From: a virus
Lineage: Duplodnaviria; Heunggongvirae; Uroviricota; Caudoviricetes
Length of the DNA stretch: 64,000 nt
Strand: one strand, 5' to 3'
Virus record (IMG/VR): IMGVR_UViG_3300002026_000057
Shown here: one piece after another, positions 1 through 60,062 of the stretch
How positions within the stretch are numbered: the first letter of the stretch is position 1
Layout: every line of letters starts with the position of its first letter
Translations under genes and position numbers: made by a program
Notes under the pieces: generated by a model
Database searches by the model: none
The model's input: only the letters and a program-made list of their open reading frames with translations
What the model was told of the DNA's origin: nothing

Positions 1-581
1 TTCCCCGACCATTTTCCAATAATCTCTTTATCTTCGCCAGGAAGAGTTAGAAATTCGGGGTCTTGTTTTAACTTTAACAGATGATTAGTTAAGTCGACAA
101 TGGTTAATATTTGTTCAACCCATTTGGGATTAAGAACGATATCATTTTTCCAATCAACATAACGATGAACTTTGAATGTGGAAAGATGGGCTCTACCAAT
201 TTCCATTGGTCCAGATAACATCAACGAAGCATTCATATTACCCTCACCGTTCCGTGTCCATACACAGGTTTTAACGATACCCCAATGGTCTGATAATCGA
301 TAAACATATCCATCATCAGTGGTGAAATACTTTGATTTGGATTTACCTTTACTTTCGTGTGTGGTTACGATATTGTTTTTGAATTTATCCTTGAGTCTTC
401 CCCAAGTTTCGAATACGTTAGAATATTCACTTTCGATAGACTGAAAATCTACTTTGGTGCAAGTTTGATAATCCTCATGAGTTATTTCCGGTTTAAGATC
501 TCGGTAATGAATGTATTTAATTTTATTTAATTCATTCACCCAATCCCGGGTTTTAATTATTTCTTCTCTTGGAATATCCAT
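1..581 (-). CDS. hypothetical protein, 5' part only (gene runs off the window edge; starts MDIPREEIIKTRDWVNELNK)
   Basis: Hand-translated minus-strand frame with ATG at 579-581. No competing ORF is listed for 1-660. Absent from the ORF track presumably because no stop lies inside the window. Confidence 0.45.
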   Translation of the reverse strand, partial: MDIPREEIIKTRDWVNELNKIKYIHYRDLKPEITHEDYQTCTKVDFQSIESEYSNVFETWGRLKDKFKNNIVTTHESKGKSKSKYFTTDDGYVYRLSDHWGIVKTCVWTRNGEGNMNASLMLSGPMEIGRAHLSTFKVHRYVDWKNDIVLNPKWVEQILTIVDLTNHLLKLKQDPEFLTLPGEDKEIIGKWSG

Positions 582-662
582 CTCTATCGTTTTTAATTAG
601 ACGATGTAAAGATAGATCAAAATAATTAGAATAACAAATTTTAATTAAAAAAGATTGAGGAT

Positions 663-1196
663 TTATTGGATAATTGTTCCTACATCAAACACGACGTAGT
701 TTCGAGCATTGGAGTCCCATTTATCTATGAATGTATTTCCAATATAACCTAATGATTTAAGGAATAATGACGCTTCCTTTTCACCACTTAATACAAATGA
801 TAGCCATTCATATACTTGTTTATTTGTGACATCACCATAATTCTCAGATTGTTCTATGTAATCAGATCTTAATTCTTCAATTGAGTCTTCATCAATTCCA
901 ACATTTTCCAATCCATTTAGGATTCGTCCCCCATCCTCACTTGCAGGGGAATCAAGGTCAAAGAAATTACCAGATCTAAGTTCGTACTCATTAACGAAAC
1001 CATTCGATGTGAAATATCTTTCTGACACTTCTCTACTATCAGAAAAATATATTCCCCACCCACCAAGAGATTTACCATCACCACTCCCAACTTTTGACAT
1101 GTCGAATGTATCGAATTTCCTGTCTGATCCATGCCACACATTTATACCTTCGGGAATTAATCTTCTTAATTGATCTTCTGTTACGATTATTTTCAT
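663..1196 (-). CDS. paralog A of the 'ITE-x-QL' N-terminal-motif family; HGS...GIYF core, possible ADP-ribosyltransferase-like fold
   Basis: N-terminus MKIIVTEDQLRRLI. WHGSD...GWGIYFSDSRE...Y core shared with 1201..1785 and 40257..41654. Tandem with paralog B. Confidence 0.6.
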   Translation of the reverse strand: MKIIVTEDQLRRLIPEGINVWHGSDRKFDTFDMSKVGSGDGKSLGGWGIYFSDSREVSERYFTSNGFVNEYELRSGNFFDLDSPASEDGGRILNGLENVGIDEDSIEELRSDYIEQSENYGDVTNKQVYEWLSFVLSGEKEASLFLKSLGYIGNTFIDKWDSNARNYVVFDVGTIIQ

Positions 1197-1200
1197 TGTT

Positions 1201-1785
1201 TTATACTATTTCAATGTTTGTTATCTCAATAATATTGGGGTTATAAACAATAATATGTTGTCTATCTTCTTTGTTTATTATTTGTCCATCATATCCTAAT
1301 TTAACCATTCCCCTTGCAAAAATAATTGGATTATATCTAAAGAAATCTATCCATACTTGTTGAAACAAATCTTTCTCAGTGTTATTATACTGCATAAAAG
1401 ATTGAATAGCAACATTAAGTCCCCTTTCAGGGTTTTCATCCCAATCTTGAGCATTAAGTTCCCATTCTGGAAGTTGTTTTATTATTTTCTTTAATTCTAT
1501 TGGCTTAATATTTTTGCTTGAAGTTTCATCCAATAATTTATTTGGTCTTAAAATAACGGAGTACAAAAATTTACCATAGTGTAGAGCCTCATTACGACTT
1601 GTTGTGAAATATATACCAGGTCCTTCCTGATCTGAAGCTTCTTGTGACCCCATAAATTCATCTGTGAATTTTTTAAAATCATGATCCGATCCGTGATATG
1701 CAATAATATTACCACCAATAACAGTTTCCTTAATGTTTCTTTTTAATTGATGAAGTTGAGCTTCTGTAATAATTATTTTCTTCAT
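1201..1785 (-). CDS. paralog B of the 'ITE-x-QL' family; YHGSD...GIYFTTSRNEALHYG core (ART-like, speculative)
   Basis: N-terminus MKKIIITEAQLHQLKRNI. Core motif similar to 663..1196. Sits 4 bp downstream of paralog A. Confidence 0.6.
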   Translation of the reverse strand: MKKIIITEAQLHQLKRNIKETVIGGNIIAYHGSDHDFKKFTDEFMGSQEASDQEGPGIYFTTSRNEALHYGKFLYSVILRPNKLLDETSSKNIKPIELKKIIKQLPEWELNAQDWDENPERGLNVAIQSFMQYNNTEKDLFQQVWIDFFRYNPIIFARGMVKLGYDGQIINKEDRQHIIVYNPNIIEITNIEIV

Positions 1786-1812
1786 ACCTATAAATATACT
1801 GAAAATTATTAA

Positions 1813-1840
1813 TAAAAAAAGGGGGATAAATCCCCCTTTT
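1813..1840. terminator. GC hairpin GGGGGA-TAAA-TCCCCC flanked by an A-run and a T-run (bidirectional intrinsic terminator)
   Basis: Perfect 6-bp GC stem with A7 upstream and T4 downstream, between converging gene ends. Confidence 0.55.
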
Positions 1841-1851
1841 AATGTATGTTA

Positions 1852-2706
1852 TTATTTCTGAAAGAATGGAGGTAGTACTGAACCGTTTCCTGAATAAGTC
1901 GGAGATACACCATTCCACTTTTTCGCCAACTCATATGTAACCAATGTCGGAGTGATTGAGTTTGACAATAATCTATTTGCTTCAGCCTGAGCTTTGGCGA
2001 CAAGAAGGAGAGATTCAGCCTCACCTTGTGCTTTTGCTACAGTTTTCTTGGCATCAGCCTCAGCCTGAACAATTTCATTTTGTTTTTGGGTAGCTAACTG
2101 AATGGCCTCAATTTTAGATATAATTGCTTTCTGAACCTGTTCCGGGAATCGAATATCACTTTTATATGAAATATCATCGATAACTAAACCAAGGGGTTCA
2201 CATTTTTTTCGTAATTCATCTTTAGCGTAATTTATCATATCAATTTTTTTGACACTATAAATTTCATCTACCCTTAAATTACTGGCATAATTAATAAAAT
2301 AGTTACTAACATCTTGACGAAGAATTTCCTTTATAATAGGTATCATATCCTTTCGATATGTGACAAATAACTTTACCACCTTCGTAGGATCAGCGTGAGC
2401 TGAAATTGCAATGTCAACATTACAGGTTATACCTTCAACTGATTGGAAATAAAAAGCTTCATCAACGGGGCTTCCCTCAGTAGCACTTTGGGTGAACGGA
2501 TAAATGTTAACGAATGTTGGGTAGGTGTATAGATCATAAGGAAGACCTAACCAATACCGACCTACATCGAGAACTTCGGGTTCAACACCTTTGTTTTGGC
2601 CAAGGGTTTTAACCTTTACCCCAATATTACCGGGGTCTACTCTACTACATGAGATTAACATCATTGATCCAAGTAGGATCATCATTAAAAAACTACTTTT
2701 TTTCAT
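1852..2706 (-). CDS. SPFH/band-7 (prohibitin/HflC-like) domain lipoprotein
   Basis: Signal peptide ending in lipobox L-I-S-C-S. Band-7 core is followed by an Ala/Gln/Glu-rich coiled segment (QAEADAKKTVAKAQGEAESLLLVAKAQAEANRLL). Confidence 0.7.
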   Translation of the reverse strand: MKKSSFLMMILLGSMMLISCSRVDPGNIGVKVKTLGQNKGVEPEVLDVGRYWLGLPYDLYTYPTFVNIYPFTQSATEGSPVDEAFYFQSVEGITCNVDIAISAHADPTKVVKLFVTYRKDMIPIIKEILRQDVSNYFINYASNLRVDEIYSVKKIDMINYAKDELRKKCEPLGLVIDDISYKSDIRFPEQVQKAIISKIEAIQLATQKQNEIVQAEADAKKTVAKAQGEAESLLLVAKAQAEANRLLSNSITPTLVTYELAKKWNGVSPTYSGNGSVLPPFFQK

Positions 2707-2897
2707 TTGTTTTTGTTTTTGTTTATAAAAATTGATTTAAGTAAAAAATAAGCGATTACAGGCGCTCCAGCAAAAGCTAAAACGTTAAAAAGGAATGGAA
2801 GTTCTGCCATCGACATCAATGGAATAATCCAAAACCATACACCAAATACAATAATAATTGATGCTAAAATTCTTGCGTAAATGTTTACAGGATTCAT
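2703..2897 (-). CDS. small 2-TM membrane protein, translationally coupled to the SPFH gene (NfeD-like partner?)
   Basis: Very hydrophobic 64 aa. Its start overlaps the SPFH stop as an ATGA overlap. Confidence 0.45.
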   Translation of the reverse strand: MNPVNIYARILASIIIVFGVWFWIIPLMSMAELPFLFNVLAFAGAPVIAYFLLKSIFINKNKNK

Positions 2898-2961
2898 ATT
2901 TGTTTATTTATTTGTTTATGTAATGATAATGAAAATAATTTAATTATCCAAATTTTGGAGT

Positions 2962-2986
2962 AAAAAAAGGGGAAAATCCCCTTTTA
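2962..2986. terminator. GC hairpin AGGGG-AAAAT-CCCCT with A/T flanks
   Basis: Hairpin plus A-run/T-run immediately downstream of the 2984..4753 gene end. Confidence 0.5.
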
Positions 2987-4753: not shown

Positions 4754-4770
4754 TTGTTTTAAACTTTAAA

Positions 4771-4950
4771 GTGGGGAGTATTTTCATAAGTTTGATTTTT
4801 ATAGGAACTCCATTTACCTATTTAAGTTTAATAATTTGACGGAGAGTAATTTATCTTAAAAGGATTGTTTTATAGGAACTCTCTATGTCAATATTTTATG
4901 GCGGGTAGTATTTTTCCATGTTTGTTTTTTATAGGAACTACCTATGCCAA
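4771..4950. repeat. three ~50-bp direct repeats (G.CGG.AGTA.TTT...TTGTTTTTTATAGGAACT.C.TAT.CCAAT) in an AT-rich ORF-free intergenic region
   Basis: Core TATAGGAACT at 4800, 4871 and 4930 with conserved flanks, spacing ~71 and ~59 bp. The region 4754-5058 lacks ORFs. Confidence 0.6.
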
Positions 4951-5058
4951 TTTTTTTCAATGAACTTTAACGATACAAATATAAATAATATATTTAACAC
5001 TGCCAAATAAATATGTGATTTTTTTTATATTTTAATAAAAAACCAGTAAATCCCTTTA

Positions 5059-5295
5059 TTATAATGTTCGTGCTATTAGGTTTGTTTCACATACAATTGG
5101 AATTTGCTCAAGAATAACTGTTAATTTGAAGGCACTTTCGTAATCCTTTTCCTTAATAGTCTCATTGAGTTTTTCTTGATAGATTTTAGTTAATTCTTCA
5201 GGCTTATATGCGTTCGTGAAAAGTAATTGAAAAACTAAAAAATTAGACTTTTCTGTAATTTGTTCTCTAATTGTTTTTGTTACTTGTTTCTTCAT
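5059..5295 (-). CDS. hypothetical protein (78 aa)
   Basis: ORF directly upstream of the MTase gene in the same orientation. Confidence 0.35.
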   Translation of the reverse strand: MKKQVTKTIREQITEKSNFLVFQLLFTNAYKPEELTKIYQEKLNETIKEKDYESAFKLTVILEQIPIVCETNLIARTL

Positions 5296-5308
5296 AATAT
5301 TGGTAAAA

Positions 5309-6022: not shown

Positions 6023-6295
6023 ATTAGTTAAATATACAGAAATTTAGGGTATTAATCAAATAAACTTAATATTTTTCTATGGTCTTGGTGAAACTGAAGA
6101 CCCTTTAGGTGGTATTGTAAAGTTCCAAAAGGGAGGTGAATGGTTGTTGTTCCGAAAGATATTGCATCTTTGTTTTTTTATGGTACCTTCTTTTAATTTC
6201 TCTATCGATATGATATCATCAACATTACTATCTGTATTTACCTTGTTTCGGTACAGAATGTATTCCACCAAATAAATATTTATTTTTTATATTTA

Positions 6296-6324
6296 ATAAA
6301 AAGGGGGAAATAACCCCCCCCTTT
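6296..6324. terminator. GC hairpin GGGGG-AAATAA-CCCCC with A/T flanks
   Basis: Stem-loop with flanking A- and T-runs between minus-strand genes. Confidence 0.5.
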
Positions 6325-6346
6325 CTTCCGATTATCTTCCGATTTT

Positions 6347-6694: not shown

Positions 6695-6733
6695 AATATA
6701 TTTTTAATTTATTTTTATTGTTATTAACTTGAC

Positions 6734-6813
6734 ATCACAATTTGTGATATCAATCCTTGATTAGAGAATCACGAATCCGGACATAATGTCCAGATTAATG
6801 TCCATATTATGGA
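6734..6813. promoter_or_regulatory. three palindromic operator-like sites in the 6695-6845 intergenic region
   Basis: ATCACAA-TT-TGTGAT (6734-6748), GGACAT-AA-TGTCC (6779-6791) and TCCATA-T-TATGGA (6801-6813). They lie upstream of the 6694 minus-strand gene start. Confidence 0.45.
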
Positions 6814-6844
6814 GATCTGATTTTAATTTAGTGTTCGTTCATAG

Positions 6845-7382: not shown

Positions 7383-7499
7383 TTGGTATCCGGGATCAAG
7401 GTCAGCCCGTGTTACTGTTACTAATTTAACTTACTTCATGACTAATAGTTTTTAATTGTTTATGTATATTAATAAATACTTAGAGATACAAATATAAAC

Positions 7500-8780: not shown

Positions 8781-8805
8781 TATAATAGGTATTTAATTTT
8801 TATTG

Positions 8806-38940: not shown

Positions 38941-38974
38941 TTAAGGTAATATTTATGATTATATACAATATATT

Positions 38975-39436
38975 ATGATATTAACATCAATACAAGGATT
39001 GATATTTATTCTATATGTGACCTTTTTATTAATTAAATTTAAAGGACCATTACACTCCATTTCAGCGTCATGGTATGAATTAGGATATCCATTAAGAAAT
39101 TTATTTGTGGCATTTTGTTTTTCAATTGGATTTACAATGACGCTACAGACGGGAAGTGTTTTATTCTTTTTATCAGGTCTTGGATTAGCATTTGTTGGAA
39201 TAGCTTCATGGTCTCAATCTTCCGTAAAATTAACACGTTTTATACACTTTGCTGGTGCCGTGAGTGGTATTGTTTTTGGACTATTAGGTATCGGATTTGG
39301 ATTCGATAATTGGATACCATTATTAATGTGGATAATATTATCATTATTAATACTATTGTTTAAAATAAAAAATCATTGGTGGTGGATTGAAATTGTTGCA
39401 TTCATTACCATAATAATCGGATTATATAACCAATAA
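38975..39436 (+). CDS. multi-TM membrane protein (153 aa)
   Basis: 4-5 hydrophobic helices. First gene of the plus-strand block. Confidence 0.5.
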   Translation: MILTSIQGLIFILYVTFLLIKFKGPLHSISASWYELGYPLRNLFVAFCFSIGFTMTLQTGSVLFFLSGLGLAFVGIASWSQSSVKLTRFIHFAGAVSGIVFGLLGIGFGFDNWIPLLMWIILSLLILLFKIKNHWWWIEIVAFITIIIGLYNQ

Positions 39437-40256: not shown

Positions 40257-41654
40257 ATGAGAGTTATTATCACCGAAAATCAATTAAAAAATGTTATTAA
40301 CCGTACTATTCTAAATGAAACTTCCGGTGAATTAGAAAAGTATTATGTTAAAACTGGTATTTTTGATGATGAAGACCGAAATGTTATAATGAATATCACT
40401 AACGGCGATAATTTCACAAAACTTATCGCCGATATGTACTATTATTTTGCCGGTAAGTACAACAAAGAATTGGTTGAACCAAGAAGATTATCTGCGAGAG
40501 ATATTGAAATTCTCGAAAATACACATAGAAGACTAAAAGAATATAACAAAAATGTTATACCTATTCATGATCTATATGCAAAAGAACATAACGCTCATCC
40601 GTTAGAAAAAATGAATGATTTAGATTGGAGAGAACGAATCATTGAAAGAATAAAACAATTACCGAGTTTATTAGTTCGTAATTTAAGGGGTGATATTAGA
40701 AAAGAAAGAACCCATTATGAATTGGAAGGGTTGTTTCATACAATAAAAGAAATACAAAATTCCTTAAAGTTAGTTGGACAAACTAAACCTGAACATCGTG
40801 AAAAAATTGAGAAGAAAATATTTTCGAGCGCCAACGACACTTTCGATGGGGTTAAAAAAAGACTTGAAGATACAACTATTCCATATTTGTCACAAGATGA
40901 TGCATCTGAAGGTATTGTCGAAAAAGTTAGAGATATAGGTGATGAAGCAGAAATATTATACAACCAAGACAATATTTTAGTTGTAAAAATTAATAGTGCA
41001 GAGGCGATGGGGTATATCGGTTGTAGTTCTCAATGGTGTTTTGCTTCAAATCCACAACAATATTGGGACAATTATACTGGCGAAGGTGGATTTGCTACCA
41101 TAGTTTTTAATTTCAATGAAGAGCCAAGTGAACCAACCGCAATGGTTGTTGTATTGGAAGATGGTAATGTATATAATATGTATAATGATTTTATGGAGGA
41201 TGGGGAGGAGTATTTAATAGATATAGGCGTACATAACATAATCCAAAGAGGTGAAATGGAATTATCCGAAAGCTTTGATATTGAAAAACAAATCGATGGG
41301 TTTATTTACCATGGAACAGGAAAAGGACAGGCTTTAAACATACAAAAAGATGGGTTTATGAAACCTAACAGAACAGGTGAAGAACATCCATCAATTTCAT
41401 TTACTAAAAGTTTTAACTATTCAAAATATTATGCAACCGTTAAAGGTGGATCAAACAAAATGGTTATATTGAGAACCAAATTAACAAACGATTTTATATT
41501 GTCTCCAAAGATATTAAATAATAAAGGAGACGAATATGTTACATTTAAAAAAGTTTCTACAAACGATTTAGAAATACTGTGTCCCGATAATAAATGGAGA
41601 CCATTAAATGAATGGGATGTTATATTTGATGAACCTAAAATTAACTTAAATTAA
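40257..41654 (+). CDS. paralog C of the 'ITE-x-QL' family (465 aa) with C-terminal YHGTG...ISFT ART-like core
   Basis: N-terminus MRVIITENQLKNVINRTILNE. C-terminus FIYHGTGKGQALN...HPSISFTKSFNYSKYYAT parallels the HGS...GIYF cores at 663..1785. Confidence 0.6.
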   Translation: MRVIITENQLKNVINRTILNETSGELEKYYVKTGIFDDEDRNVIMNITNGDNFTKLIADMYYYFAGKYNKELVEPRRLSARDIEILENTHRRLKEYNKNVIPIHDLYAKEHNAHPLEKMNDLDWRERIIERIKQLPSLLVRNLRGDIRKERTHYELEGLFHTIKEIQNSLKLVGQTKPEHREKIEKKIFSSANDTFDGVKKRLEDTTIPYLSQDDASEGIVEKVRDIGDEAEILYNQDNILVVKINSAEAMGYIGCSSQWCFASNPQQYWDNYTGEGGFATIVFNFNEEPSEPTAMVVVLEDGNVYNMYNDFMEDGEEYLIDIGVHNIIQRGEMELSESFDIEKQIDGFIYHGTGKGQALNIQKDGFMKPNRTGEEHPSISFTKSFNYSKYYATVKGGSNKMVILRTKLTNDFILSPKILNNKGDEYVTFKKVSTNDLEILCPDNKWRPLNEWDVIFDEPKINLN

Positions 41655-41942: not shown

Positions 41943-42016
41943 TACGCTCGAAGCTCAAGTGGACGGGCTTCTGGCTTTTAACCAGAAGGTTGTGGGTTCG
42001 AGGCCCACCGGGCGTA
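41943..42016 (+). tRNA. tRNA-Lys (anticodon TTT), canonical length but apparent 8-nt T-loop
   Basis: Acceptor ACGCTCG/CGGGCGT, D-stem GCTC/GGGC, anticodon stem TCTGG/CCAGA, loop CTTTTAA, T-arm GTGGG-TTCGAAGG-CCCAC. Confidence 0.5.
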
Positions 42017-42022
42017 CAAAAT

Positions 42023-42112
42023 GACTCTGTGGCAGAGATAGGCGTGATGCACCAGACTTTTAATCTGGGATCCCCATAAAGGTGTACGTGGGTTCGATTC
42101 CCACCGGGGTCA
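42023..42112 (+). tRNA. tRNA-like, 90 nt, anticodon loop CTTTTAA (UUU) with ~19-nt variable region; identity uncertain
   Basis: Acceptor GACTCTG/CGGGGTC (with G-U pairs), T-arm GTGGG-TTCGATT-CCCAC, discriminator A, anticodon stem CCAGA/TCTGG. Confidence 0.4.
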
Positions 42113-42169
42113 CTTGAGAGTAGAGTTTAGGTATTTTCTGTATCTTGTTTGAACTGAAATATCCAAATC

Positions 42170-42238
42170 GCCGACAATCCAGGGAGACGACGGCTCTGTA
42201 AAAGCCTAGCGCGAAGGTTCAAGATCCTTCTGGCGGCA
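42170..42238 (+). tRNA. degenerate tRNA-like element (acceptor GCCGACA/TGGCGGC, loop CTGTAAA, 8-nt T-loop); possible pseudogene
   Basis: 6/7 acceptor pairing, T-stem GAAGG/CCTTC, but no convincing D-arm. Confidence 0.25.
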
Positions 42239-42303
42239 CATAGGTATCGGTTTTAGGGTTTTTTACTACTTTTTTGGTCCAATGTCCCGAAAAAAAGTAG
42301 AAT

Positions 42304-42386
42304 GGAAAGGTGGTCGAGTGGTTAATGGCACCAGACTGTAAATTTGGTCTCTTCGGAGTTCGGGGGTTCGAATCCCTCCCTTTCCA
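42304..42386 (+). tRNA. tRNA-Tyr (GTA), type II
   Basis: Acceptor GGAAAGG/CCTTTCC, 3-bp D-stem, anticodon stem CCAGA/TTTGG, loop CTGTAAA, variable hairpin CTC-TTCG-GAG, T-loop TTCGAAT, discriminator A. Confidence 0.7.
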
Positions 42387-42393
42387 CAACAAT

Positions 42394-42466
42394 GCATCCG
42401 TAGCTCAATTGGCGGAGCTCGTGACTCTTACTCATGAGGTTGGGGGTTCGATTCCCTTCGGATGCA
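42394..42466 (+). tRNA. tRNA-Lys (CTT)
   Basis: Acceptor GCATCCG/CGGATGC, D-arm GCTC-AATTGGCG-GAGC, anticodon loop CTCTTAC, T-loop TTCGATT. Confidence 0.65.
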
Positions 42467-42472
42467 CAAATC

Positions 42473-42555
42473 ACCATCGTAGTAAAGTGGCCAAATACGC
42501 TTCTCTCATAAGGAAGTCCTTTTTAGGTTCGAGGGTTCGAATCCCTCCGATGGTA
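42473..42555 (+). tRNA. tRNA with anticodon CAT (Met or Ile2) carrying a long variable hairpin (CCT-TTTT-AGG)
   Basis: Acceptor ACCATCG/CGATGGT, anticodon stem CTTCT/GGAAG, loop CTCATAA, T-arm GAGGG-TTCGAAT-CCCTC, discriminator A. Confidence 0.55.
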
Positions 42556-42643
42556 CAAAATGGTGATTATCACCATAATAGAAAAAAGTTTTAAAAAACT
42601 TAAAAAAAAGTTTAAAAAAACTTGGTTATTCCAATACGATTAT

Positions 42644-42669
42644 TTATATTTGTACCATATTTATAATAA
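42644..42669 (+). promoter_or_regulatory. promoter copy B: the same TTATATTTGTACCATATTTATAATAA 27-mer
   Basis: Identical to the 41694-41720 element. Confidence 0.5.
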
Positions 42670-42688
42670 AGATTAAACGCTGAAACAA

Positions 42689-42838
42689 ATGAAAAACATA
42701 ATTGCAATAATTTCAAGGACACAAATATCGTCCCCATCAACGACAAGTAGTCGTAATGGAAATGGTATATTCTGTTCAGACTTTACAGGCAGAAATATTG
42801 CAGACACGGGTTCAGGTGGAAAGGTTGTTTTAAGATAA
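42689..42838 (+). CDS. small ORF B (49 aa, MKNIIAIISRTQISSPSTTSSRNGNG...) between promoter copy B and a terminator
   Basis: Hand-translated. Flanked by the promoter at 42644 and the terminator at 42872. Confidence 0.25.
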   Translation: MKNIIAIISRTQISSPSTTSSRNGNGIFCSDFTGRNIADTGSGGKVVLR

Positions 42839-42871
42839 ACTTTTCCGAAACACACAAACTGAACCCGACAT

Positions 42872-42919
42872 CTGAATAGATAGTCGGGTTTTTTGTTCTT
42901 TGACATATTGGTATTTTGA
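42872..42919 (+). terminator. rho-independent terminator CCCGAC-N13-GTCGGG plus T6, followed by GTTCTTTGACATATTGG
   Basis: Hairpin plus T-run. The tail is shared with the terminator at 41887. Confidence 0.6.
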
Positions 42920-42999
42920 TGAAGTGGCTGAGTGGTTGAAAGCGACAGTCTGCAAAACTGTTTACGAAAGTACTCGTGGGTTCGAATCCCACCTTCATC
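42917..42999 (+). tRNA. tRNA with anticodon GCA (Cys identity, U73) but a type-II-like long variable hairpin (TAC-GAAA-GTA)
   Basis: Acceptor GATGAAG/CTTCATC, 3-bp D-stem GCT/AGC, anticodon stem ACAGT/ACTGT, loop CTGCAAA, T-arm GTGGG-TTCGAAT-CCCAC, discriminator T. Confidence 0.55.
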
Positions 43000-43077
43000 T
43001 CCATTTGGAACGTTCTGTCATTGCTATATCGGGACAGAACACCTCCATAGGGTTGCATGGTTTCCTATGGACCACCT

Positions 43078-43166
43078 GGGTGAGTAGCTGAATTGGCTTA
43101 GCGGGAGGCTGTTAACCTCTGATTGAAAATATTGAAATAAAGTGGGTTCGAAGCCCTCCTTGCCCT
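43078..43166 (+). tRNA. tRNA-Asn (GTT)-like with a 21-nt AT-rich insertion at the variable-loop position
   Basis: Acceptor GGGTGAG/CTTGCCC (with G-U pairs), anticodon stem GGAGG/CCTCT, loop CTGTTAA, insert GATTGAAAATATTGAAATAAA, T-loop TTCGAAG. Confidence 0.45.
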
Positions 43167-43229
43167 CAAATTATAGTTTTGTTTAACTATACTTATAGTT
43201 GATTAATAGAGAATATTTTCAACTGATAT

Positions 43230-43303
43230 TGTCTTGTAGTTCAGCCAGGAAGAACGTTCGGCAGATACCCGAAAGGTCGTTGGTTCAAACCCAATCAAGA
43301 CAA
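43230..43303 (+). tRNA. tRNA, probable Ile (GAT), anticodon loop CAGATAC (A at position 33)
   Basis: Acceptor TGTCTTG/CAAGACA, D-arm GTTC-AGCCAGGAA-GAAC, anticodon stem TTCGG/CCGAA, T-arm GTTGG-TTCAAAC-CCAAT. Confidence 0.5.
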
Positions 43304-43373
43304 CGAGAGAGACCCTTTTTTCTGATTTTTTTTAAAGGACACTTCGGTGGAAGCGTAGAAAAAAGTCTGATAC

Positions 43374-43455
43374 TGTGACGTGGATGAGCGGTTTAGTCAC
43401 CAGTCTGATACACTGGGTGCTTAGCACGACGTGAGTTCGAATCTCACCGTCACAA
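43374..43455 (+). tRNA. tRNA-Ile (GAT) with a 14-nt variable hairpin (GTGC-TTA-GCAC)
   Basis: Acceptor TGTGACG/CGTCACA, anticodon stem CCAGT/ACTGG, loop CTGATAC, T-arm GTGAG-TTCGAAT-CTCAC, discriminator A. Confidence 0.55.
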
Positions 43456-43575
43456 CAAAAGGTTAGTAATCTAGACGCCTAACCAGCTGAAAAGATGAAG
43501 TTTCCTTGGCGAAATTGATCCAAACTGGCACCTGTGGTGGGATGAGAAGTGGTGATAAAGTGACCAAAAACTATA

Positions 43576-43663
43576 AGGAAGAGTGTCCGAGTGGCTTATG
43601 GAGGCGGTCTTGAAAACCGTTGTCCCTGCAAGGGGACCGTGGGTTCGAATCCTACCTCTTCCG
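43576..43663 (+). tRNA. tRNA-Ser (TGA), type II
   Basis: Acceptor GGAAGAG/CTCTTCC, loop CTTGAAA, variable hairpin GTCCC-TGCAA-GGGAC, discriminator G. Confidence 0.7.
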
Positions 43664-43735
43664 CAAAAGGGTAGCTGTTTTTTAGAATTTTTTTATCGAA
43701 CTGAGTAAAGGTATTCGGAAACAAAAAATTCGTTT

Positions 43736-43820
43736 GGAGAGGTGGCAGAGTGGTCTAATGCGGCAGTCTTGAAAACTGTTGGGCTTTCGGGCTCCGGGGG
43801 TTCGAATCCCTCCCTCTCCG
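43736..43820 (+). tRNA. tRNA-Ser (TGA), second copy, type II
   Basis: Acceptor GGAGAGG/CCTCTCC, loop CTTGAAA, variable arm GGGCTTTCGGGCTC, discriminator G. Confidence 0.65.
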
Positions 43821-43934
43821 CAACTGAAAACTATTGGATTGTCTAAGTTTTTTAGTGGCGGAAGTTTAAAGGACAATAAACCGCCCCGGAAAGGTATATA
43901 AAACAGTGAACTTGTTCATTGATTCCGGGAATTT

Positions 43935-44023
43935 GGAAGAATGGGTGAGTGGTTTAAACCAGCGGCTTGCTAAGCCGTCGGGCGGGGTAACCCGCCCCAA
44001 GAGTTCGAATCTCTTTTCTTCCG
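43935..44023 (+). tRNA. tRNA-Ser (GCT), type II
   Basis: Acceptor GGAAGAA/TTCTTCC, loop TTGCTAA, variable hairpin CGGGCGGGG-TAA-CCCGCCCC, T-arm AAGAG-TTCGAAT-CTCTT, discriminator G. Confidence 0.7.
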
Positions 44024-44097
44024 CCATATTTAAAGAAATTTCATTAAAAGTCGCCTGTTTCAGAAACCGATGAGTATTTATAAATAAATAAACATTT

Positions 44098-44517
44098 ATG
44101 AATACAAATGAAAAGGGTAATAGAGGATTGGCAAATGTAATATCTGACGTAATTAATAAGGGGTATTTTATATTTTTACCACTTACGGACACAACAAATA
44201 TTGATATTATAATTGCAAATGAAAAAATGGAAATGTTCAGAGCTCAAGTAAAATATAGTTCTGTTAATAAACATGGAGTTATTAAAGCATCTACATCAAA
44301 TGTTGTTGATAGAAAAAGAGTTTCTGTAAATTTTTCGGTTATTGATTTGTGGGCAATTTATTGTCCTGACACAAGTAAAGTATACTATGTACCAAAAAAA
44401 GAATTGGTAAATAAGTCATCTGGAATGGAATTACGTGTTAATAAACCGAAATTGAATAATCCAAACATACATTTTGCAAATGATTATTTGGATATAAAAA
44501 ATGCGTTGATAAAGTAA
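44098..44517 (+). CDS. hypothetical protein (139 aa) embedded in the tRNA array
   Basis: ORF on the same strand as the tRNAs. No motif identified. Confidence 0.45.
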   Translation: MNTNEKGNRGLANVISDVINKGYFIFLPLTDTTNIDIIIANEKMEMFRAQVKYSSVNKHGVIKASTSNVVDRKRVSVNFSVIDLWAIYCPDTSKVYYVPKKELVNKSSGMELRVNKPKLNNPNIHFANDYLDIKNALIK

Positions 44518-44752
44518 TCAGCCAAATTGGATTATCATTAGCTGATTTCACACGTCAAAACAATGGTCATGACATTGTGGAGATGTTAGGGTTCTGAATT
44601 GCATAAGAGGCTCTATTAATGTTCAGCTGGAAAACTTCCCTGTGTTTGTGTATAGGCAGCACAATAAATACGGGGATATTCTGAGAGACATTTTTAAGGT
44701 GGTTGAAATATCATCGGTAGTGTGAGTATAAGGCTCACTTCAGAACCAAATT

Positions 44753-44825
44753 GGTGTCGTAGCTCAGTTGGTAGAGCGCGGGCCTGAAGAGCCCGGCGTC
44801 GGTGGTTCGAATCCACCCGATACCA
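44753..44825 (+). tRNA. tRNA-Phe (GAA)
   Basis: GGTGTCGTAGCTCAGTTGGTAGAGCGCGGGCCTGAAGAGCCCGGCGTCGGTGGTTCGAATCCACCCGATACCA; clean cloverleaf. Confidence 0.8.
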
Positions 44826-44831
44826 CAATAT

Positions 44832-44905
44832 TCTTGTGTAGCTCAGTTGGTTAGAGCGGCGGACTGTTAATCCGTAGGTCGAAGGTTCAAGTCCTTCCTC
44901 AAGAG
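44832..44905 (+). tRNA. tRNA-Asn (GTT), canonical
   Basis: D-arm GCTC-AGTTGGTTA-GAGC, anticodon stem GCGGA/TCCGT, loop CTGTTAA, T-arm GAAGG-TTCAAGT-CCTTC, discriminator G. Confidence 0.7.
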
Positions 44906-44999
44906 CAATACTGGTTTTTGATCCCGCTTTACCGTTAGGATGCTCAGGCTGAACAGAATACAAAGGAGGAATGACAGGTGTGGAGAGACACACAAATAC

Positions 45000-45071
45000 G
45001 GATTGGTAGCTCAGGGGTAGAGCGCTGGCCTGAAGAGCCAGAGGTCGAAGGGTCAACTCCTTCTCATTCCA
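45000..45071 (+). tRNA. tRNA-Phe (GAA)-like second copy with a divergent T-loop (GTCAACT) and an acceptor mismatch
   Basis: D-arm GCTC-AGGGGTA-GAGC, anticodon stem CTGGC/GCCAG, loop CTGAAGA, T-stem GAAGG/CCTTC. Confidence 0.45.
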
Positions 45072-45273
45072 CAAATGTGGGTTGTCCACCAGTAGAGGTG
45101 GGTACGTAAGTCTGTTATACACGGCAGAGTCCACGCCAAATATCGGGGATGATACACTGTTTTATCACAGTGCCCCGTCCAAAAAAGGACAAGTGAATGG
45201 ATCAATCCCTGTTTCCGCAGGGGGAGATTACCGTCTAGAGTACGGACATTTACATCGGAATTGTCCTTTACTT

Positions 45274-45361
45274 GCAGTAGTCGCCTAGTTGATCGATGGC
45301 ACTGGATTTCCAATCCAGTCAGATAAAGTTCACGTCGAGGGTTTGAATCCCTCCTACTGCT
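45274..45361 (+). tRNA. tRNA-Gly (TCC)-like with an 18-nt variable-region insertion
   Basis: Acceptor GCAGTAG/CTACTGC (7/7), 3-bp D-stem GCC/GGC, anticodon stem CTGGA/TCCAG, loop TTTCCAA, T-arm GAGGG-TTTGAAT-CCCTC, discriminator T. Confidence 0.5.
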
Positions 45362-45720
45362 CTTTTAAGATATCTGGAAATACAGGTTCGAATCCTGTAC
45401 CGCTCCTTCGGGGGAGGTTCGTCTAAGGGATAGGACGCCGGAGCACACGGTCTCCTTTGCTTAGGAATATCGAAGCGGCTACATCTCAATATTAGCTATA
45501 AAAGATGTAGAATGGGTGAAAGTCCCAAGGAGATCAGACTTTCGTGGTCGTGGGTTCGAGCCCCACCGCTACCGTCGGTAGTGTAAGTCTCAGTTGGTAG
45601 AGCTGCGAACCATAAATGTTATTTCTTAGGAACACCAATCACGATGGGTTCGAAACCGTAGTGAAGGTACATTAGAAAGTGTTCTAGCGGGAATAACAAT
45701 GCCTCGGATAATAATAGTAC
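45362..45720 (+). other. cluster of tRNA-like fragments: isolated T-arms, hairpins, and a 3' half (T-arm plus CGCTACC-G) directly abutting a 5' half (GGTAGTG-TA-D-arm) with mutually complementary acceptor strands
   Basis: T-arms ACAGG-TTCGAAT-CCTGT (45381-45398) and GTGGG-TTCGAGC-CCCAC (45556-45572). 3' acceptor CGCTACC at 45573-45579, then TC, then GGTAGTG plus a D-arm-like TCTC-AGTTGGTA-GAGC. GCGAA at 45613 can pair with TTCGT at 45547. Confidence 0.3.
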
Positions 45721-45736
45721 TTAAAAATTCCGGGGT

Positions 45737-45810
45737 CGCGATGTAGCTCAGTTTGGTTAGAGCGCCGCTGCACAAGGCGGAGGTCAGAGGTTCGAATCCT
45801 CTCATCGCAA
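45737..45810 (+). tRNA. tRNA-like with C1.A72 mismatch (initiator-like) and a non-7-nt anticodon loop (CCGC-TGCACAAG-GCGG)
   Basis: Acceptor CGCGATG/CATCGCA, D-arm GCTC-AGTTTGGTTA-GAGC, T-arm AGAGG-TTCGAAT-CCTCT, discriminator A. Anticodon loop is 8 nt (or 6 with a U.G pair). Confidence 0.4.
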
Positions 45811-45815
45811 CTATA

Positions 45816-45900
45816 TGCGAGGTCGACTGGAGTTGGTTCCAGCGGGGGCTCATAACCCCTAACCCTTACGGGAACACAGGTTCGAATCCTGTCCTCGCTA
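45816..45900 (+). tRNA. tRNA with anticodon CAT and a 15-nt variable hairpin (CCC-TTAC-GGG)
   Basis: Anticodon stem GGGGG/CCCCT, loop CTCATAA, D-arm CTGG-AGTTGGTT-CCAG, T-arm ACAGG-TTCGAAT-CCTGT, acceptor GCGAGG/CCTCGC. Confidence 0.5.
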
Positions 45901-45922
45901 CTAATATTTTTTTTAAAATACA

Positions 45923-46009
45923 TGCGGGGTGGTGTAATTGGTTAACACGCTGGGCTCATAACCCAGAGACATCTAATGCTTCGTGTCAGTTCGAATCTGA
46001 CCCCCGCTA
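45923..46009 (+). tRNA. tRNA with anticodon CAT and an 18-nt variable-region insertion; U1.U72 mismatch
   Basis: Acceptor TGCGGGG/CCCCGCT, D-arm GTGT-AATTGGTTA-ACAC, anticodon stem CTGGG/CCCAG, loop CTCATAA, T-arm GTCAG-TTCGAAT-CTGAC. Confidence 0.5.
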
Positions 46010-46014
46010 CAATT

Positions 46015-46087
46015 GCCTATTTAGCTCAGTTGGTGGAGCGTATCCTTGGTATGGATAAGGTCATGGGTTCGAATCCCGTACTAGGCT
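46015..46087 (+). tRNA. tRNA-Thr (GGT)
   Basis: Acceptor GCCTATT/ACTAGGC, D-arm GCTC-AGTTGGTG-GAGC, anticodon stem TATCC/GGATA, loop TTGGTAT, T-arm ATGGG-TTCGAAT-CCCGT. Confidence 0.65.
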
Positions 46088-46131
46088 CATTCTCGTTTTT
46101 CATATATTTATGGATATAAAAAATTAAAACT

Positions 46132-46374
46132 ATGTTCAAAAAATTATGGGAAAATATTAAGGCATGGTGGATTAAAACCGCCGAACCTTGGTTAAAGAAA
46201 AGTTGGATGCAAATTGTAAATATCATTGTAATGTTCATTGCATATGGTACAACCGATTCACTTCCATGGGTACAAGCAATTGTAGGATTGTGGTTGTTCC
46301 TTCTTTTGGGATATTATATTTTCTGGAAACTCTTTGGAGCGGAAAAAATGTTCAAAAAGGATATCACAACGTAA
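46132..46374 (+). CDS. small 2-TM membrane protein (80 aa) inside the tRNA array
   Basis: Trp-rich hydrophobic helices. Followed by a strong terminator. Confidence 0.45.
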   Translation: MFKKLWENIKAWWIKTAEPWLKKSWMQIVNIIVMFIAYGTTDSLPWVQAIVGLWLFLLLGYYIFWKLFGAEKMFKKDITT

Positions 46375-46398
46375 AACAATTATTTTTACAGTATGGGT

Positions 46399-46430
46399 AA
46401 ACCCCAATTATACTGTAATTGGGGTTTTTT
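46399..46430 (+). terminator. rho-independent terminator ACCCCAATTA-TACTG-TAATTGGGGT plus T6
   Basis: 10-bp stem plus T-run right after the 46132..46374 ORF. Confidence 0.7.
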
Positions 46431-46433
46431 ATT

Positions 46434-46518
46434 GCCGATGTGGCATCAGCGGTCGACTGCGCCTGACTTGTAATCAGGATCTTAAACGGCAACGGGGGTT
46501 CGAATCCCTCCATCGGCT
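46434..46518 (+). tRNA. tRNA-Thr (TGT) with ~15-nt variable-region expansion
   Basis: Acceptor GCCGATG/CATCGGC, 3-bp D-stem, anticodon stem CCTGA/TCAGG, loop CTTGTAA, T-arm GGGGG-TTCGAAT-CCCTC, discriminator T. Confidence 0.5.
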
Positions 46519-46592
46519 CCATCCCTTCGGGGATCCCCGGCTTTTGGTGCTGGTAACACCTTGTAACCGATAACAATTAAAAACTACCAAAT

Positions 46593-46667
46593 GCGATAGT
46601 AGCTCAGTTGGTTCAGAGCGGGACCTTGCCAAGGTCCAGGTCGTGGGTTCGAGCCCCATTTATCGCT
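46593..46667 (+). tRNA. tRNA-Gly (GCC)
   Basis: Acceptor GCGATAG/TTATCGC, D-arm GCTC-AGTTGGTTCA-GAGC, anticodon stem GGACC/GGTCC, loop TTGCCAA, T-loop TTCGAGC, discriminator T. Confidence 0.7.
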
Positions 46668-46672
46668 CAATT

Positions 46673-46745
46673 GCGAAAGTAGCTCATTTGGTAGAGCATC
46701 AGCCTTCCAAGCTGAGGGTGGCGAGTTCAAGCCTCGTCTTTCGCT
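46673..46745 (+). tRNA. tRNA-Gly (TCC), canonical
   Basis: Acceptor GCGAAAG/CTTTCGC, D-arm GCTC-ATTTGGTA-GAGC, anticodon stem TCAGC/GCTGA, loop CTTCCAA, T-arm GCGAG-TTCAAGC-CTCGT. Confidence 0.7.
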
Positions 46746-46974
46746 CCAAGTATTCTTCATAACTCAGAGGATTCATCGCGCCAGAAATGGTGAGGAACTT
46801 CAGGACATCACTGCCAAATGCGGGAGGGTTAAAACCCGTTATCACCGCAGAGGATGCAACCCAAAAAAGCTTAGACGGCAAGCAGGTCTATAATAGTAAG
46901 GTTGGGGCTTAGACAAATGATGAAACAAAACAGAAACCTGGGTACGCTCAAGTTATGATTTATTTTGATTAATA

Positions 46975-47048
46975 GGATCATTAGCTTAATTGGTAAAAGC
47001 AGAACACTCATAATGTTAAGAGTAACGGTTCGATCCCGTTATGATCCA
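46975..47048 (+). tRNA. tRNA with anticodon CAT (Met/Ile2), canonical length
   Basis: Acceptor GGATCAT/ATGATCC, D-arm GCTT-AATTGGTA-AAGC, anticodon stem GAACA/TGTTA, loop CTCATAA, T-arm AACGG-TTCGATC-CCGTT, discriminator A. Confidence 0.6.
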
Positions 47049-47478
47049 CAAATAAATAATATTTAATATTGTAATAAAGGTCTTGGATCCTTCAAAGATA
47101 ATATTGAATATCTCACGAATGCTATAAAATATTTAAAATAAAAATATCTCATACAACCATATCCCGAAACTATTTATATATGTAGTTTCATAAAATTCTA
47201 AATTAATAAAAATGAAAGATTGTGAACCGTATAAACAGAAACAAAACAGCAACATTGTTCCTTTTCTTAGGAACATTTTTCAATCCTTTAGGATACGATG
47301 CTCTCCTAAAATTCTTAATCGATACGACAGGCAGTTATTGGTTTTCAATTTCCATTTTCTACCTATTGTCAGTAGTTTGCTTTATCTCTTACTTTGTTTT
47401 AGCTAAAGTAAACCCATTAAAACTCTTTACAAGAAAAAGAGATTTATCTTAGGATATTAATTTCTTTTTCTTTATATT

Positions 47479-47553
47479 TGCACCCGTAGCTTAATTGGAT
47501 AAGCATCACTCTTCTAAAGTGAAGTCATATGAGTTCGAGCCTCATGGGGTGTT
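47479..47553 (+). tRNA. tRNA-Arg (TCT)
   Basis: Acceptor GCACCCG/GGGGTGT (one mismatch), D-arm GCTT-AATTGGATA-AGC, anticodon stem TCACT/AGTGA, loop CTTCTAA, T-arm ATGAG-TTCGAGC-CTCAT. Confidence 0.55.
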
Positions 47554-47566
47554 CTAATTAATTGAT

Positions 47567-47710
47567 ATGTCTACAACTATATGTCCAAAATGTAAACAAC
47601 CACTTATTACAATAGATAAAGATTACGTTATTTGTTGTGATGAGGTAATATACGTGATAAATGATATTCACAATTCAAAAAATGAATCACGTCTTGAAAT
47701 ATCAAGATGA
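47567..47710 (+). CDS. small zinc-ribbon ORF (47 aa, MSTTICPKCKQPLITIDKDYVICCDE...)
   Basis: Hand-translated. CPKC...CC cluster. Below the ORF-track cutoff. Confidence 0.25.
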   Translation: MSTTICPKCKQPLITIDKDYVICCDEVIYVINDIHNSKNESRLEISR

Positions 47711-47849
47711 AAATAATAAATGGATTTCAGTAAATGGATATGCATTTATTGATAATTGGGGACATTGTATAATAATTGTTTATGGCGAAGGTCGTAGAGA
47801 TGCACTTAATCAACATTTAATAAAAACGCTCCCATATTTCAACGGATAG
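47661..47849 (+). CDS. hypothetical protein (62 aa); partly overlaps the zinc-ribbon ORF, so the true start is uncertain
   Basis: ORF track. Its C-terminal codons (…YFNG*) coincide with repeat copy 1 of the tRNA-3'-like element. Confidence 0.3.
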   Translation: MIFTIQKMNHVLKYQDENNKWISVNGYAFIDNWGHCIIIVYGEGRRDALNQHLIKTLPYFNG

Positions 47850-47893
47850 AATTAGAATTTCCTAAATTTTAGATACAGGTTCGATTCCTGTTG
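47830..47893 (+). repeat. tRNA-3'-half-like repeat, copy 1 (TTCAACGGATAGAA...TTTTAGATACAGGTTCGATTCCTGTTGGGAG)
   Basis: T-arm-like ACAGG-TTCGATT-CCTGT with no matching 5' half. ~80% identical to the 48308-48365 copy. The two copies flank the GNAT gene. Confidence 0.5.
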
Positions 47894-47913
47894 GGAGTAC
47901 AAAAAATATTAGT

Positions 47914-59813: not shown

Positions 59814-60062
59814 TTACAACATTCGGTCAATCTTTAACTTCCTAAGTAATTCTGATAATTCTTCACATTCAGCATCACTGACTCTTGTTTCACACCATTG
59901 TGATGATAATTTACCCAATAGTTTTGCTTCTTCCGTTGACATAAAAACCTCACGAGCTTTTTCTCGTTGGTGGGTAGTTAACGCTTGGTCATATGTGTCT
60001 TCATTTATAACACTCATAAGACTCTTTAATTGTGATTCGGTTAATTTAATTTTCTTACTCAT
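59814..60062 (-). CDS. small protein (82 aa) carrying the shared N-terminal motif (MSKKIKLTESQLKSLM...)
   Basis: N-terminal KLTESQLKSL matches the I/L-TE-x-QL motif of 663..1196, 1201..1785 and 40257..41654. Confidence 0.45.
   Translation of the reverse strand: MSKKIKLTESQLKSLMSVINEDTYDQALTTHQREKAREVFMSTEEAKLLGKLSSQWCETRVSDAECEELSELLRKLKIDRML

Follow-up and report, generated by a model that had tools for sequence, protein, structure and literature searches.

What purpose could be served by a nearly identical start on four otherwise different proteins of one phage, and what are the two enzymes that carry it side by side? These questions are raised by a stretch of 64,000 nt from the IMG/VR record IMGVR_UViG_3300002026_000057 (Caudoviricetes), called here the window, by which the whole stretch of analysed DNA is meant. 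A first-pass annotation, made from the letters alone, had pointed to four open reading frames (ORFs) with a common leader, namely the tandem pair 663..1196 and 1201..1785 and the separate genes 40257..41654 and 59814..60062. In addition, it had noted in three of the products a core reminiscent of ADP-ribosyltransferases (ARTs). All four ORFs exist with the N-termini claimed for them, i.e., MKIIVTEDQLRRLI, MKKIIITEAQLHQLK, MRVIITENQLKNVI, and MSKKIKLTESQLKSLM; 40257..41654 lies on the plus strand and the other three on the minus strand. The leader is a genuine, widespread, virus-specific, and cargo-independent N-terminal tag.

The pattern [ILV][TS]ExQL occurred four times within the first 14 residues of the 110 window genes, where 0.004 occurrences were expected, and was not found internally in 18,920 residues. 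A degenerate DNA pattern encoding M-[KR]-x(0-2)-I-phi-T-E-x-Q-L matched at least 120 viral loci in IMG/VR. Among the matches listed, a scope that holds also for the 86 non-redundant leader proteins described below, 109 of 125 in-frame viral matches (87%) were start-proximal ORFs of at least 50 aa, and L, I, V, or M was found at the unconstrained position +7 in 100 of these 109. Cellular genomes gave at least 120 loci with the same pattern; 63 of the listed matches were in-frame, seven were ORF starts (6% of loci), and three had the +7 residue. The consensus from the 86 non-redundant proteins was MK-[IYL]-I-[IL]-T-E-[SEN]-Q-[LF]-K-x-[LI]-[IL]-x-E, in which positions left free by the search pattern were also conserved. 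A chance low-complexity feature of AT-rich genes was considered, since MKK and MKI starts are common in AT-rich genomes and the window has a GC content of 33.7%. This explanation is refuted by the N-terminal excess together with the contrast between viral and cellular matches, the conserved free positions speak against it as well, and we give it practically no chance of being true. The common start noticed in the first-pass annotation is thus no coincidence of AT-rich gene starts.

At the conserved leader residues the codon choice equals the background usage of the same ORFs, which argues for selection on the peptide and not on the DNA. The four window genes differ in their upstream DNA, and only the coding part of the leader aligns, with synonymous differences. 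A DNA repeat or a mobile promoter cassette was therefore rejected as the source of conservation, the upstream DNA being unconserved and the synonymous sites free. A Sec or lipoprotein signal peptide was also rejected. Such a signal was required to have a basic N-terminus and then a hydrophobic core at least about 10 residues long, while the hydrophobic run in the leaders is only 3-4 residues long (IIV, IIII) and is followed by T-E-x-Q and charged residues.

The leader of 1201..1785 is kept in the orthologues P0002-P0011, P0033, and P0035. Orthologues P0107-P0116 of 663..1196 keep MKIIITE[ST]QLKxL[IL]PE, and the more distant ones have other leader types or none. An AlphaFold (AF2) model of 1201..1785 was built from 31 homologues and had a predicted local distance difference test (pLDDT) score of 89.9. 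Residues 1-22 formed a low-confidence appendage (pLDDT 53-65), which was extended, with a helix at 8-16 and a linker at 19-22 below 50. As modelled, the leader is a flexible peptide of 16-20 residues outside the enzyme fold.

The 86 non-redundant cargo proteins are 52-836 aa long, and the leader is the sole part they share. Pfam domains in the cargo were Phage_lysozyme (6), LysM (5), L5 gp82 (4), Hydrolase_2 (2), Peptidase_M23 (2), and PG_binding_1 (2). GH19, glucosaminidase, an inorganic pyrophosphatase-like enzyme, DUF932, and cREC_REC were also present, and most of the others had no Pfam match. Cell-wall hydrolases comprise about one fifth of the distinct cargo proteins. Members of one and the same cargo family differ in leader from lineage to lineage and may carry the window type (type A), type B (MKxLIKKLLRExLxE; L010, L019, L043), type C (MNINEIIKEEIQNLFEG; P0117-P0146), or none. 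Counting types B and C, at least three further conserved N-terminal leader families were observed on unrelated proteins of related phages. The third, M(E)NFDLKKFLVENKLT, is found in the cultured Flavobacterium phage immuto (L183, 504..1052, 14329..15330, and 15330..15629). Literature searches with leader strings, and the Iyer/Aravind papers on polyvalent proteins, viral NAD+ systems, and jumbo phages, gave no description of the leader; these papers mention neither a leader nor a capsid-targeting sequence for the ARTs discussed here. The leader appears to be undescribed before.

The tandem ART-PolyVal pair

Only 4 nt lie between the tandem ORFs. Their products are 34% identical over the first 87 residues (E 4e-9), including WHGS or YHGS and GIYF(S/T). 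Both products exceeded the curated gathering threshold of the Pfam family PF18760, ART-PolyVal, which is 31.2 bits (Table 1), and nearly all homologues of both are precomputed as PF18760. In the 31 homologues of 1201..1785, H31, G32, G55, G57, I58, Y59, and F60 were invariant and D166 nearly invariant. Strands were predicted at residues 27-33, containing H31, at 58-61, containing Y59, and at 167-172, with D166 immediately before. This may be compared with the description of the family by Iyer et al. (2017), who placed the His in strand 1, the Tyr in strand 2, and the Asp in strand 5 (PMC5512222). The product of 1201..1785 has an intact predicted H-Y-D site. In 663..1196, H22 and Y50 are at least 90% conserved, and its clade of 76 homologues has Ile throughout at the Asp column. 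The fold of 663..1196 was placed by hhalign to the 1201..1785 clade, whose member was modelled; the two clades aligned end to end with a probability of 99.35% (E 6.4e-21), with LGYIGN against LGYDG.

Foldseek searches of the PDB with the 1201..1785 model returned 6kyf (an anti-CRISPR protein), chain 9k3a_B of the cyanophage A4 pre-ejectosome, MbcT, and many PARP/tankyrase catalytic domains. The best solved structure was 6kyf (E 1.3e-5, 15% identity), which we take to be AcrIF11, a bona fide ADP-ribosyltransferase. In BFVD the model matched phage ART-PolyVal proteins with E 2e-15, many of them within polypeptides of more than 1000 aa. Both tandem genes are standalone ART-PolyVal members and encode predicted ADP-ribosyltransferases. 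The ART fold, which the first-pass annotation had read from motifs in these two proteins, is borne out by the Pfam scores and by the match of the model to ART structures. The assignment itself is already known, as a Pfam family with a published prediction, and is in this respect routine. The comparisons drawn in the annotation held in part. PARP catalytic domains are among the structural matches; the triad, likened in the annotation to the H-Y-E / PARP-like pattern, is H-Y-D, and H-Y-I in the paralog. The likeness to T4 modA/modB stands as an analogy of tandem arrangement and does not extend to kinship, T4 Alt, ModA, and ModB being R-S-E enzymes. Membership in that group (Alt/VIP2) was rejected, since the site is H-Y-D or H-Y-I and Pfam gave no match to an R-S-E family. 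The ARTs of polyvalent proteins have also been placed in another clade than Alt (PMC5512222).

Judged by the alignments, the two clades were paired long ago and the tandem did not arise by recent duplication, because 663..1196 belongs to a separate, well-populated clade. The longest contig listed for the orthologues of both proteins is alike a Logan contig of 4116 bp, which suggests that the tandem arrangement is kept elsewhere. Contig L003, syntenic with the window, has only the H-Y-D gene of the pair. The same ART clade also occurs within polyvalent proteins of 1200-2200 aa. In the 55 loci collected by ART homology (approximately 1 Mb) the type-A leader was rare, being found in three loci beyond the window's four, and most standalone ART-PolyVal homologues there had another leader type or none. 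L003 and the locus L006, described below, were fetched by other routes.

Possible roles of the leader

By analogy with T4, the leader could be a capsid-targeting propeptide by which diverse effectors, in the window two or three ARTs, are loaded into the head for injection, and we give this proposal an even chance. The leader would direct the newly made protein into the prohead core, and a gp21-type prohead protease would remove it by cutting after I/L-x-E. The mature enzymes would travel in the head and enter the cell with the DNA, where, in the first moments of infection, they would modify host proteins or nucleic acids by NAD+-dependent ADP-ribosylation. Head packaging of ARTs of this clade was already proposed by Iyer et al. 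(PMC5512222). The first-pass annotation had likewise suggested a packaging or injection signal. Substantial circumstantial support for this comes from the cargo independence, the conservation at the amino acid level, the I/L-x-E content, the gp21 homologues of leader-bearing phages, and a motif shared with structural genes, and it is disfavoured by the indirect proteomic observation on phage CBB given below.

Cleavage by T4 gp21 takes place after L/I-x-E (PMC9026906). According to the annotation of GenBank X15811, Alt loses its first six residues, MELITE, and T4 gp23 has a 65-residue propeptide that ends with FLTE65 before AEIGG. T4 gp24 starts with MAKINELLRE, which resembles the leader types B and C. 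Each of the four window leaders has I/V/L-T-E at residues 5-9 and a second I/L-x-E at 14-21. A second phi-x-E was found within 20 residues in 65 of the 86 leaders (76%), compared with 29% of background windows (p = 4e-17). The T-even capsid-targeting sequence MKTYQEFIAE showed no resemblance to the leader beyond phi-x-E, and the sole likeness to T4 was the ITE of the Alt peptide MELITE.

Several leader loci contain genes of T4-like heads and tails. When the fetched loci were searched with T4 proteins by phmmer, homologues of gp18 were found in nine leader loci, of gp20 in three, of gp23 in L086 and L112, and of gp21 in L071, L086, L110, and L112 (E 5e-11 to 1e-17); gp19 homologues were also among the T4-like proteins. 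gp23 or gp17 was found beside ART-PolyVal homologues in L055, L056, L058, L032, and L061, and the T4-like phage immuto is a cultured relative of one cargo family. Only specific leader families sit inside the head module. The gene order in L086 and L110 is gp21, a 52-aa very basic protein, a 93-114-aa protein starting with MKKIKLTEADL, a 114-aa protein starting with MKIIITEEQL, an acidic coiled-coil protein which looks like a scaffold, and gp23. In L112 a 457-aa leader protein divergently adjoins gp21, and in both L055 and L058 gp23 is followed by a short-leader ART-PolyVal gene. The small, extremely basic protein (45-52 aa, …GIHAKSKTS…NYKKP…GQG), which is encoded directly after gp21 in L086 (558..713) and L110 (11953..12111) and is present also in immuto (L183 7761..7898), is a candidate for a DNA-associated internal head protein. 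The portal (gp20) homologue of L112 (106..2541, 811 aa) contains ...GIVVHNS..., which looks like a C-terminal intein splice junction.

A motif (G)ATATTTAT(A) was found upstream of sheath, tube, and protease genes and of half of the leader genes (loci L062-L181). TATTTAT was present at most 60 nt upstream of 71 of 133 leader genes (53%), 10 of 19 structural genes encoding gp18, gp19, or gp21 (53%), and 551 of 2634 other genes (21%); the enrichment over other genes had p = 2e-15 for leader genes and 0.002 for structural genes. A 13-mer identical to that in front of 1201..1785 precedes the ATG of the gp21 homologue in L110. The motif stands upstream of only nine of the 110 window genes, two of which head the units with the ART pair and with the third leader protein, 40257..41654. 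In these T4-like phages the ATATTTAT motif may act as the late promoter. The late promoter of T4 itself, TATAAATA (reverse complement TATTTATA), was found in exact form upstream of only three of the 86 leader genes, and ATATTTAT was preferred. A scan for intrinsic terminators gave six sites where 0.4 were expected in shuffled sequences, most of them being overlapping calls on the hairpin at 1817..1840. According to these predicted signals, the ART pair is a terminator-bounded two-gene transcription unit of its own.

The cargo also recalls proteins ejected by other phages. The best cultured-phage matches of a leader-bearing lysozyme were lysozyme domains inside N4-like virion RNA polymerases. 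The ejection protein gp28 of phage A4 contains a lytic transglycosylase, an M23 peptidase, and an unassigned alpha+beta domain, and ADP-ribosyltransferases are unmentioned for it in the A4 paper (PMC12002296). The ART model of 1201..1785 matched chain 9k3a_B with E 3e-5 and a Foldseek probability of 1.0. This chain is probably gp28, and the ART-like region may correspond to its unassigned domain. More tentatively, the leader together with its sister types B and C could be a general head-loading and injection address tag of a large uncultivated T4-like clade. Every leader protein would then belong to the injected set, i.e., ARTs, cell-wall hydrolases, cyclic-nucleotide-processing enzymes, zinc-ribbon proteins, and proteins without assignment, and the first-minute effector arsenal would be readable from sequence.

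A number of observations weigh against head packaging. CBB_455, a Rak2-like homologue of 1201..1785 in phage CBB, was not among the listed virion mass spectrometry proteins; it is the only cultured-phage homologue with such published data, it has no type-A leader, and CBB has a gp21 homologue. A general enrichment of leader loci beside head modules was rejected, since approximately 5 of 120 among the loci listed is the chance level. Head genes were absent from the window and its 5.5-kb extension (L184), and a gp21 homologue in the window's own genome is therefore inferred from relatives. The neighbours of the ART pair are non-structural (Band_7, methylase, peptide deformylase), and a DHH-like or inorganic pyrophosphatase-like enzyme and DUF932 among the cargo are not obvious injected effectors. 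The Glu at the boundary of leader and domain persists in some leaderless homologues and may be part of the domain, not a cleavage site. Two further points, the position of TATTTAT and the Ile of 663..1196, are taken up below with the explanations they favour. As an alternative, the leader could be a tag that is recognised at the protein level but serves another function than head packaging, the ARTs being made and acting in the infected cell like T4 ModA and ModB. It could serve as a docking peptide for a conserved partner of phage or host, e.g., a chaperone, a membrane site, or a replication compartment, or as a degradation or regulation tag that shortens the life of potentially toxic enzymes. 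Any trans-acting recognition would fit the cargo independence and the selection on amino acids, and the non-structural surroundings of the pair, the undetected CBB_455, and the cargo enzymes atypical for injected proteins agree with it. We do not consider this very likely, as it leaves unexplained the I/L-x-E content matching T4 cleavage sites, the leader genes between gp21 and the capsid gene, and the upstream motif that is also present before sheath, tube, and protease genes; nor does it account for the overrepresentation of ARTs and cell-wall hydrolases, both typical of ejected proteins.

Of the 71 leader genes with the motif, 42 have TATTTAT beginning at -11 or -12. If the motif is -10-like, the mRNAs would be near-leaderless and a translation-related role is allowed. 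The conserved start could accordingly be mainly an expression module, spread by recombination and consisting of a promoter 11-12 nt before the ATG and about 16 A/U-rich codons, which would favour initiation in hosts without Shine-Dalgarno sequences (Bacteroidota). The cassette of terminator, promoter, and ATG before 1201..1785 is consistent with it, as are the AT-rich genomes and the Flavobacterium host of the cultured relative. However, synonymous codons at the conserved T, E, Q, L, and I are at background, i.e., the nucleotides are unconstrained, and the conservation spans about 16 residues with the polar T, E, and Q invariant. Approximately half of the leader genes have no motif, and the unlike upstream DNA of the four window genes argues in the same direction, so that we find the expression module very unlikely. 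Regarding the enzymes, the Ile at the Asp position leaves the predicted activity of 663..1196 in doubt. The ART-like domains could be NAD+-degrading, NAD+-binding, or inactive and not transferases, with the pair maybe consisting of an enzyme (H-Y-D) and a regulator (H-Y-I). MbcT, a NAD+ phosphorylase, is among the top structural matches, the strand-5 Asp is missing in the 663..1196 clade, and a profile search of PDB sequences with both ART alignments gave nothing meaningful, with no PF18760 member found by sequence among the solved structures. We hold this explanation to be improbable, given that the NAD-site signature of H, Y, and GIYF is invariant in both clades and that the top PDB match, 6kyf, is deposited as an anti-CRISPR protein, presumably the transferase AcrIF11. 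H-Y-I is also the triad of active mono-ART PARPs such as PARP10, and for this reason 663..1196 is not called inactive.

Other leader proteins and genome setting

The features of the window are collected in Table 1. The top Foldseek matches of the 120-aa C-terminal module of the third leader protein all belonged to the ART superfamily (Tpt1/KptA, CC0527, DUF952, cholera/pertussis toxin, Arr, DarT, RES). Its hhalign comparison with the ART-PolyVal alignment was weak (probability 3.8%), and so was the pairwise similarity to the tandem proteins, hence the kinship to ART-PolyVal is one of fold only. In the model, the C-terminus is a minimal ART fold of a family other than ART-PolyVal. Of the core claimed for three proteins, the tandem pair has the literal form, and the third protein agrees at the level of fold; in place of D-x-F...GIYF it has YHGTGKG...PSISFT...YSKYY. 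The window copy of the module is 57-84% identical to 16 other aligned members, and the spread of the module suggests very recent domain shuffling. The module was observed in more than 20 architectures, in N-terminal, internal, or C-terminal position, beside ART-PolyVal, ParB/DUF1015-like, and other domains.

Table 1. Coordinates of the leader genes, leaders, and signals in the window.
Feature	Position	Strand	Description	Basis
Upstream gene of pair	1201..1785	minus	194-aa standalone ART-PolyVal, predicted triad H31-Y59-D166	PF18760, 43.5 bits, E 6.8e-11
Downstream paralog	663..1196	minus	177 aa; H22, Y50, Ile152 (H-Y-I)	PF18760, 39.4 bits, E 1.2e-9
Leader of 1201..1785	1726..1785	minus	MKKIIITEAQLHQLKRNIKE, residues 1-20; I-T-E at 6-8, I-K-E at 18-20	
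Leader of 663..1196	1149..1196	minus	MKIIVTEDQLRRLIPE, residues 1-16; V-T-E at 5-7, I-P-E at 14-16	
13-mer	1786..1798	minus	TATATTTATAGGT, directly 5' of the 1201..1785 ATG	promoter-like motif
Hairpin and T-run	1817..1840	minus	intrinsic-terminator-like, between the Band_7 gene and the ART pair	10-pair stem
ATATTTAT	38949..38956	plus	26 nt 5' of ORF 38975..39436, first gene of the unit ending with the third leader protein	
Third leader protein	40257..41654	plus	465 aa: leader MRVIITENQLKNVINRTILNE, domain at about residues 20-340, C-terminal minimal ART module	translation, homologues
Mobile ART-fold module	41283..41651	plus	C-terminal, about 120 aa, YHGTGKG...PSISFT	AF2 pLDDT 87.4, Foldseek
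Fourth leader protein	59814..60062	minus	82 aa: MSKKIKLTESQLKSLMSVINE and small cargo	translation

The middle domain of the third protein (about 320 aa; 40317..41280, plus strand) had no Pfam or PHROG match. It is often standalone, and in other phages its fusion partners are 2H/Acb1-like phosphoesterase, cREC_REC, or nucleotidyltransferase domains; its sequence contexts hint at a role against cyclic-nucleotide defences. The pentapeptide SSQWC is common to this domain and the fourth leader protein. The latter has only the leader in common with the other three, and its leader resembles that of a MKKIKLTEADLTRIVRRVIRE protein beside gp21 in L110, the BLASTP similarity being confined to the leader. 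Searches of cultured phages by tblastn with the third and fourth proteins gave no match. In L006 (3366..11107) a run of leader genes was observed, in which two MKLLDTLKKIIQE proteins are followed by a 412-aa MKITLNENQLQFLTE protein with an ART-like signature, YHFTNT...FYFFSTT. The run continues with a homologue of the third window protein and an 831-aa ART-PolyVal protein and adjoins an LRR protein. In a longer copy of the contig, cell-wall-binding and amidase genes were also found near the run.

The window encodes 27 tRNA genes, a Dda-like helicase, an RnlA-like RNA ligase, and a DNA ligase, and its source is a large phage. Megablast of window positions 1-20000 against cultured phages gave no match. 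An exact 47-mer of the window was absent from IMG/VR, and no record of the exact third protein was found. A source contig was recovered for the left end only (L184, 25.7 kb), and its extension beyond the window contained no further leader genes. The main tRNA array comprises 26 tRNAs (41944..47900, plus strand), many of them unusually long (83-92 nt) and one with undetermined anticodon. Far from it, ARAGORN called a tRNA with anticodon UUA, which would read the UAA stop (8805..8877, minus strand); the window ORFs appear intact under code 11. The genes at 11880..17304 (minus strand) encode a three-PAS-domain protein and a solute-binding domain fused to OmpA, and 1852..2706 (minus strand) encodes a Band_7/SPFH lipoprotein. 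ABC-transporter genes were seen in the syntenic L003. Taken together, the PAS, OmpA-fusion, ABC-transporter, and Band_7/SPFH genes are an unusual envelope and sensing set for a phage.

Comparison with known systems

Short, easily searched, and specific to viral contigs, the leader is a tag common to dozens of otherwise unrelated proteins of environmental T4-like phages. Should it be a capsid-targeting propeptide, the internal-protein principle of T4, i.e., one address for many interchangeable anti-host cargoes, would extend far beyond the T-even phages. Candidate injected effectors of unculturable phages, including likely counter-defence enzymes, could then be listed from sequence, and the leader would be a candidate handle for packaging foreign proteins into capsids. 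If it is not, a conserved and cargo-independent peptide still points to a new recognition system in these phages.

The T4-type capsid-targeting sequence is likewise a short conserved N-terminal peptide on unrelated, fast-evolving cargo, by which anti-host proteins are loaded in a modular way. The prohead protease cleaves it off after its terminal I-x-E; for the leader, such cleavage is proposed here. The two have no similarity beyond phi-x-E. The window-type leader is longer (about 16 residues), and in environmental T4-like phages, e.g., those of Flavobacteria, a much larger number of cargo families carry it, among them enzymes of 300-800 aa. T4 Alt is also an ART of a T4-like phage and has an N-terminal I-T-E, which in Alt is a gp21 cut site. 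Its life cycle of being packaged, trimmed, and injected is the one proposed for the window proteins. Alt differs in being an R-S-E enzyme of the Alt/VIP2 clade with 682 aa and no homology beyond the superfamily fold, and its 6-residue propeptide is not known on other cargo.

The polyvalent proteins of phages and conjugative elements with ART-PolyVal domains (Tox-ART-HYD2 clade; PMC5512222) agree with the tandem pair in sequence family, ART fold, the strands with His and Tyr, and, for 1201..1785, the Asp, and also in the predicted role of an effector delivered early against the host. In contrast to the known domains, which lie inside multidomain proteins of 1000-2000 aa, those of the window are standalone, 177-194 aa long, and provided with a leader, and one paralog has Ile for Asp. 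Like the window proteins, 6kyf, presumably AcrIF11, is a standalone phage ART of small size, and it acts by inactivating a defence protein of the host; the identity is 15%, 6kyf has no leader, and the window proteins show no sign of CRISPR-Cas targeting. A4 gp28 (PDB 9k3a; PMC12002296) and the N4-like virion RNA polymerases are capsid-internal and ejected, and they contain lysozyme or transglycosylase, M23, and putative ART-like domains as found among the leader cargo. In these podoviruses the domains are fused in one giant polypeptide, while in the myoviruses considered here they are separate small proteins, each with its own leader.

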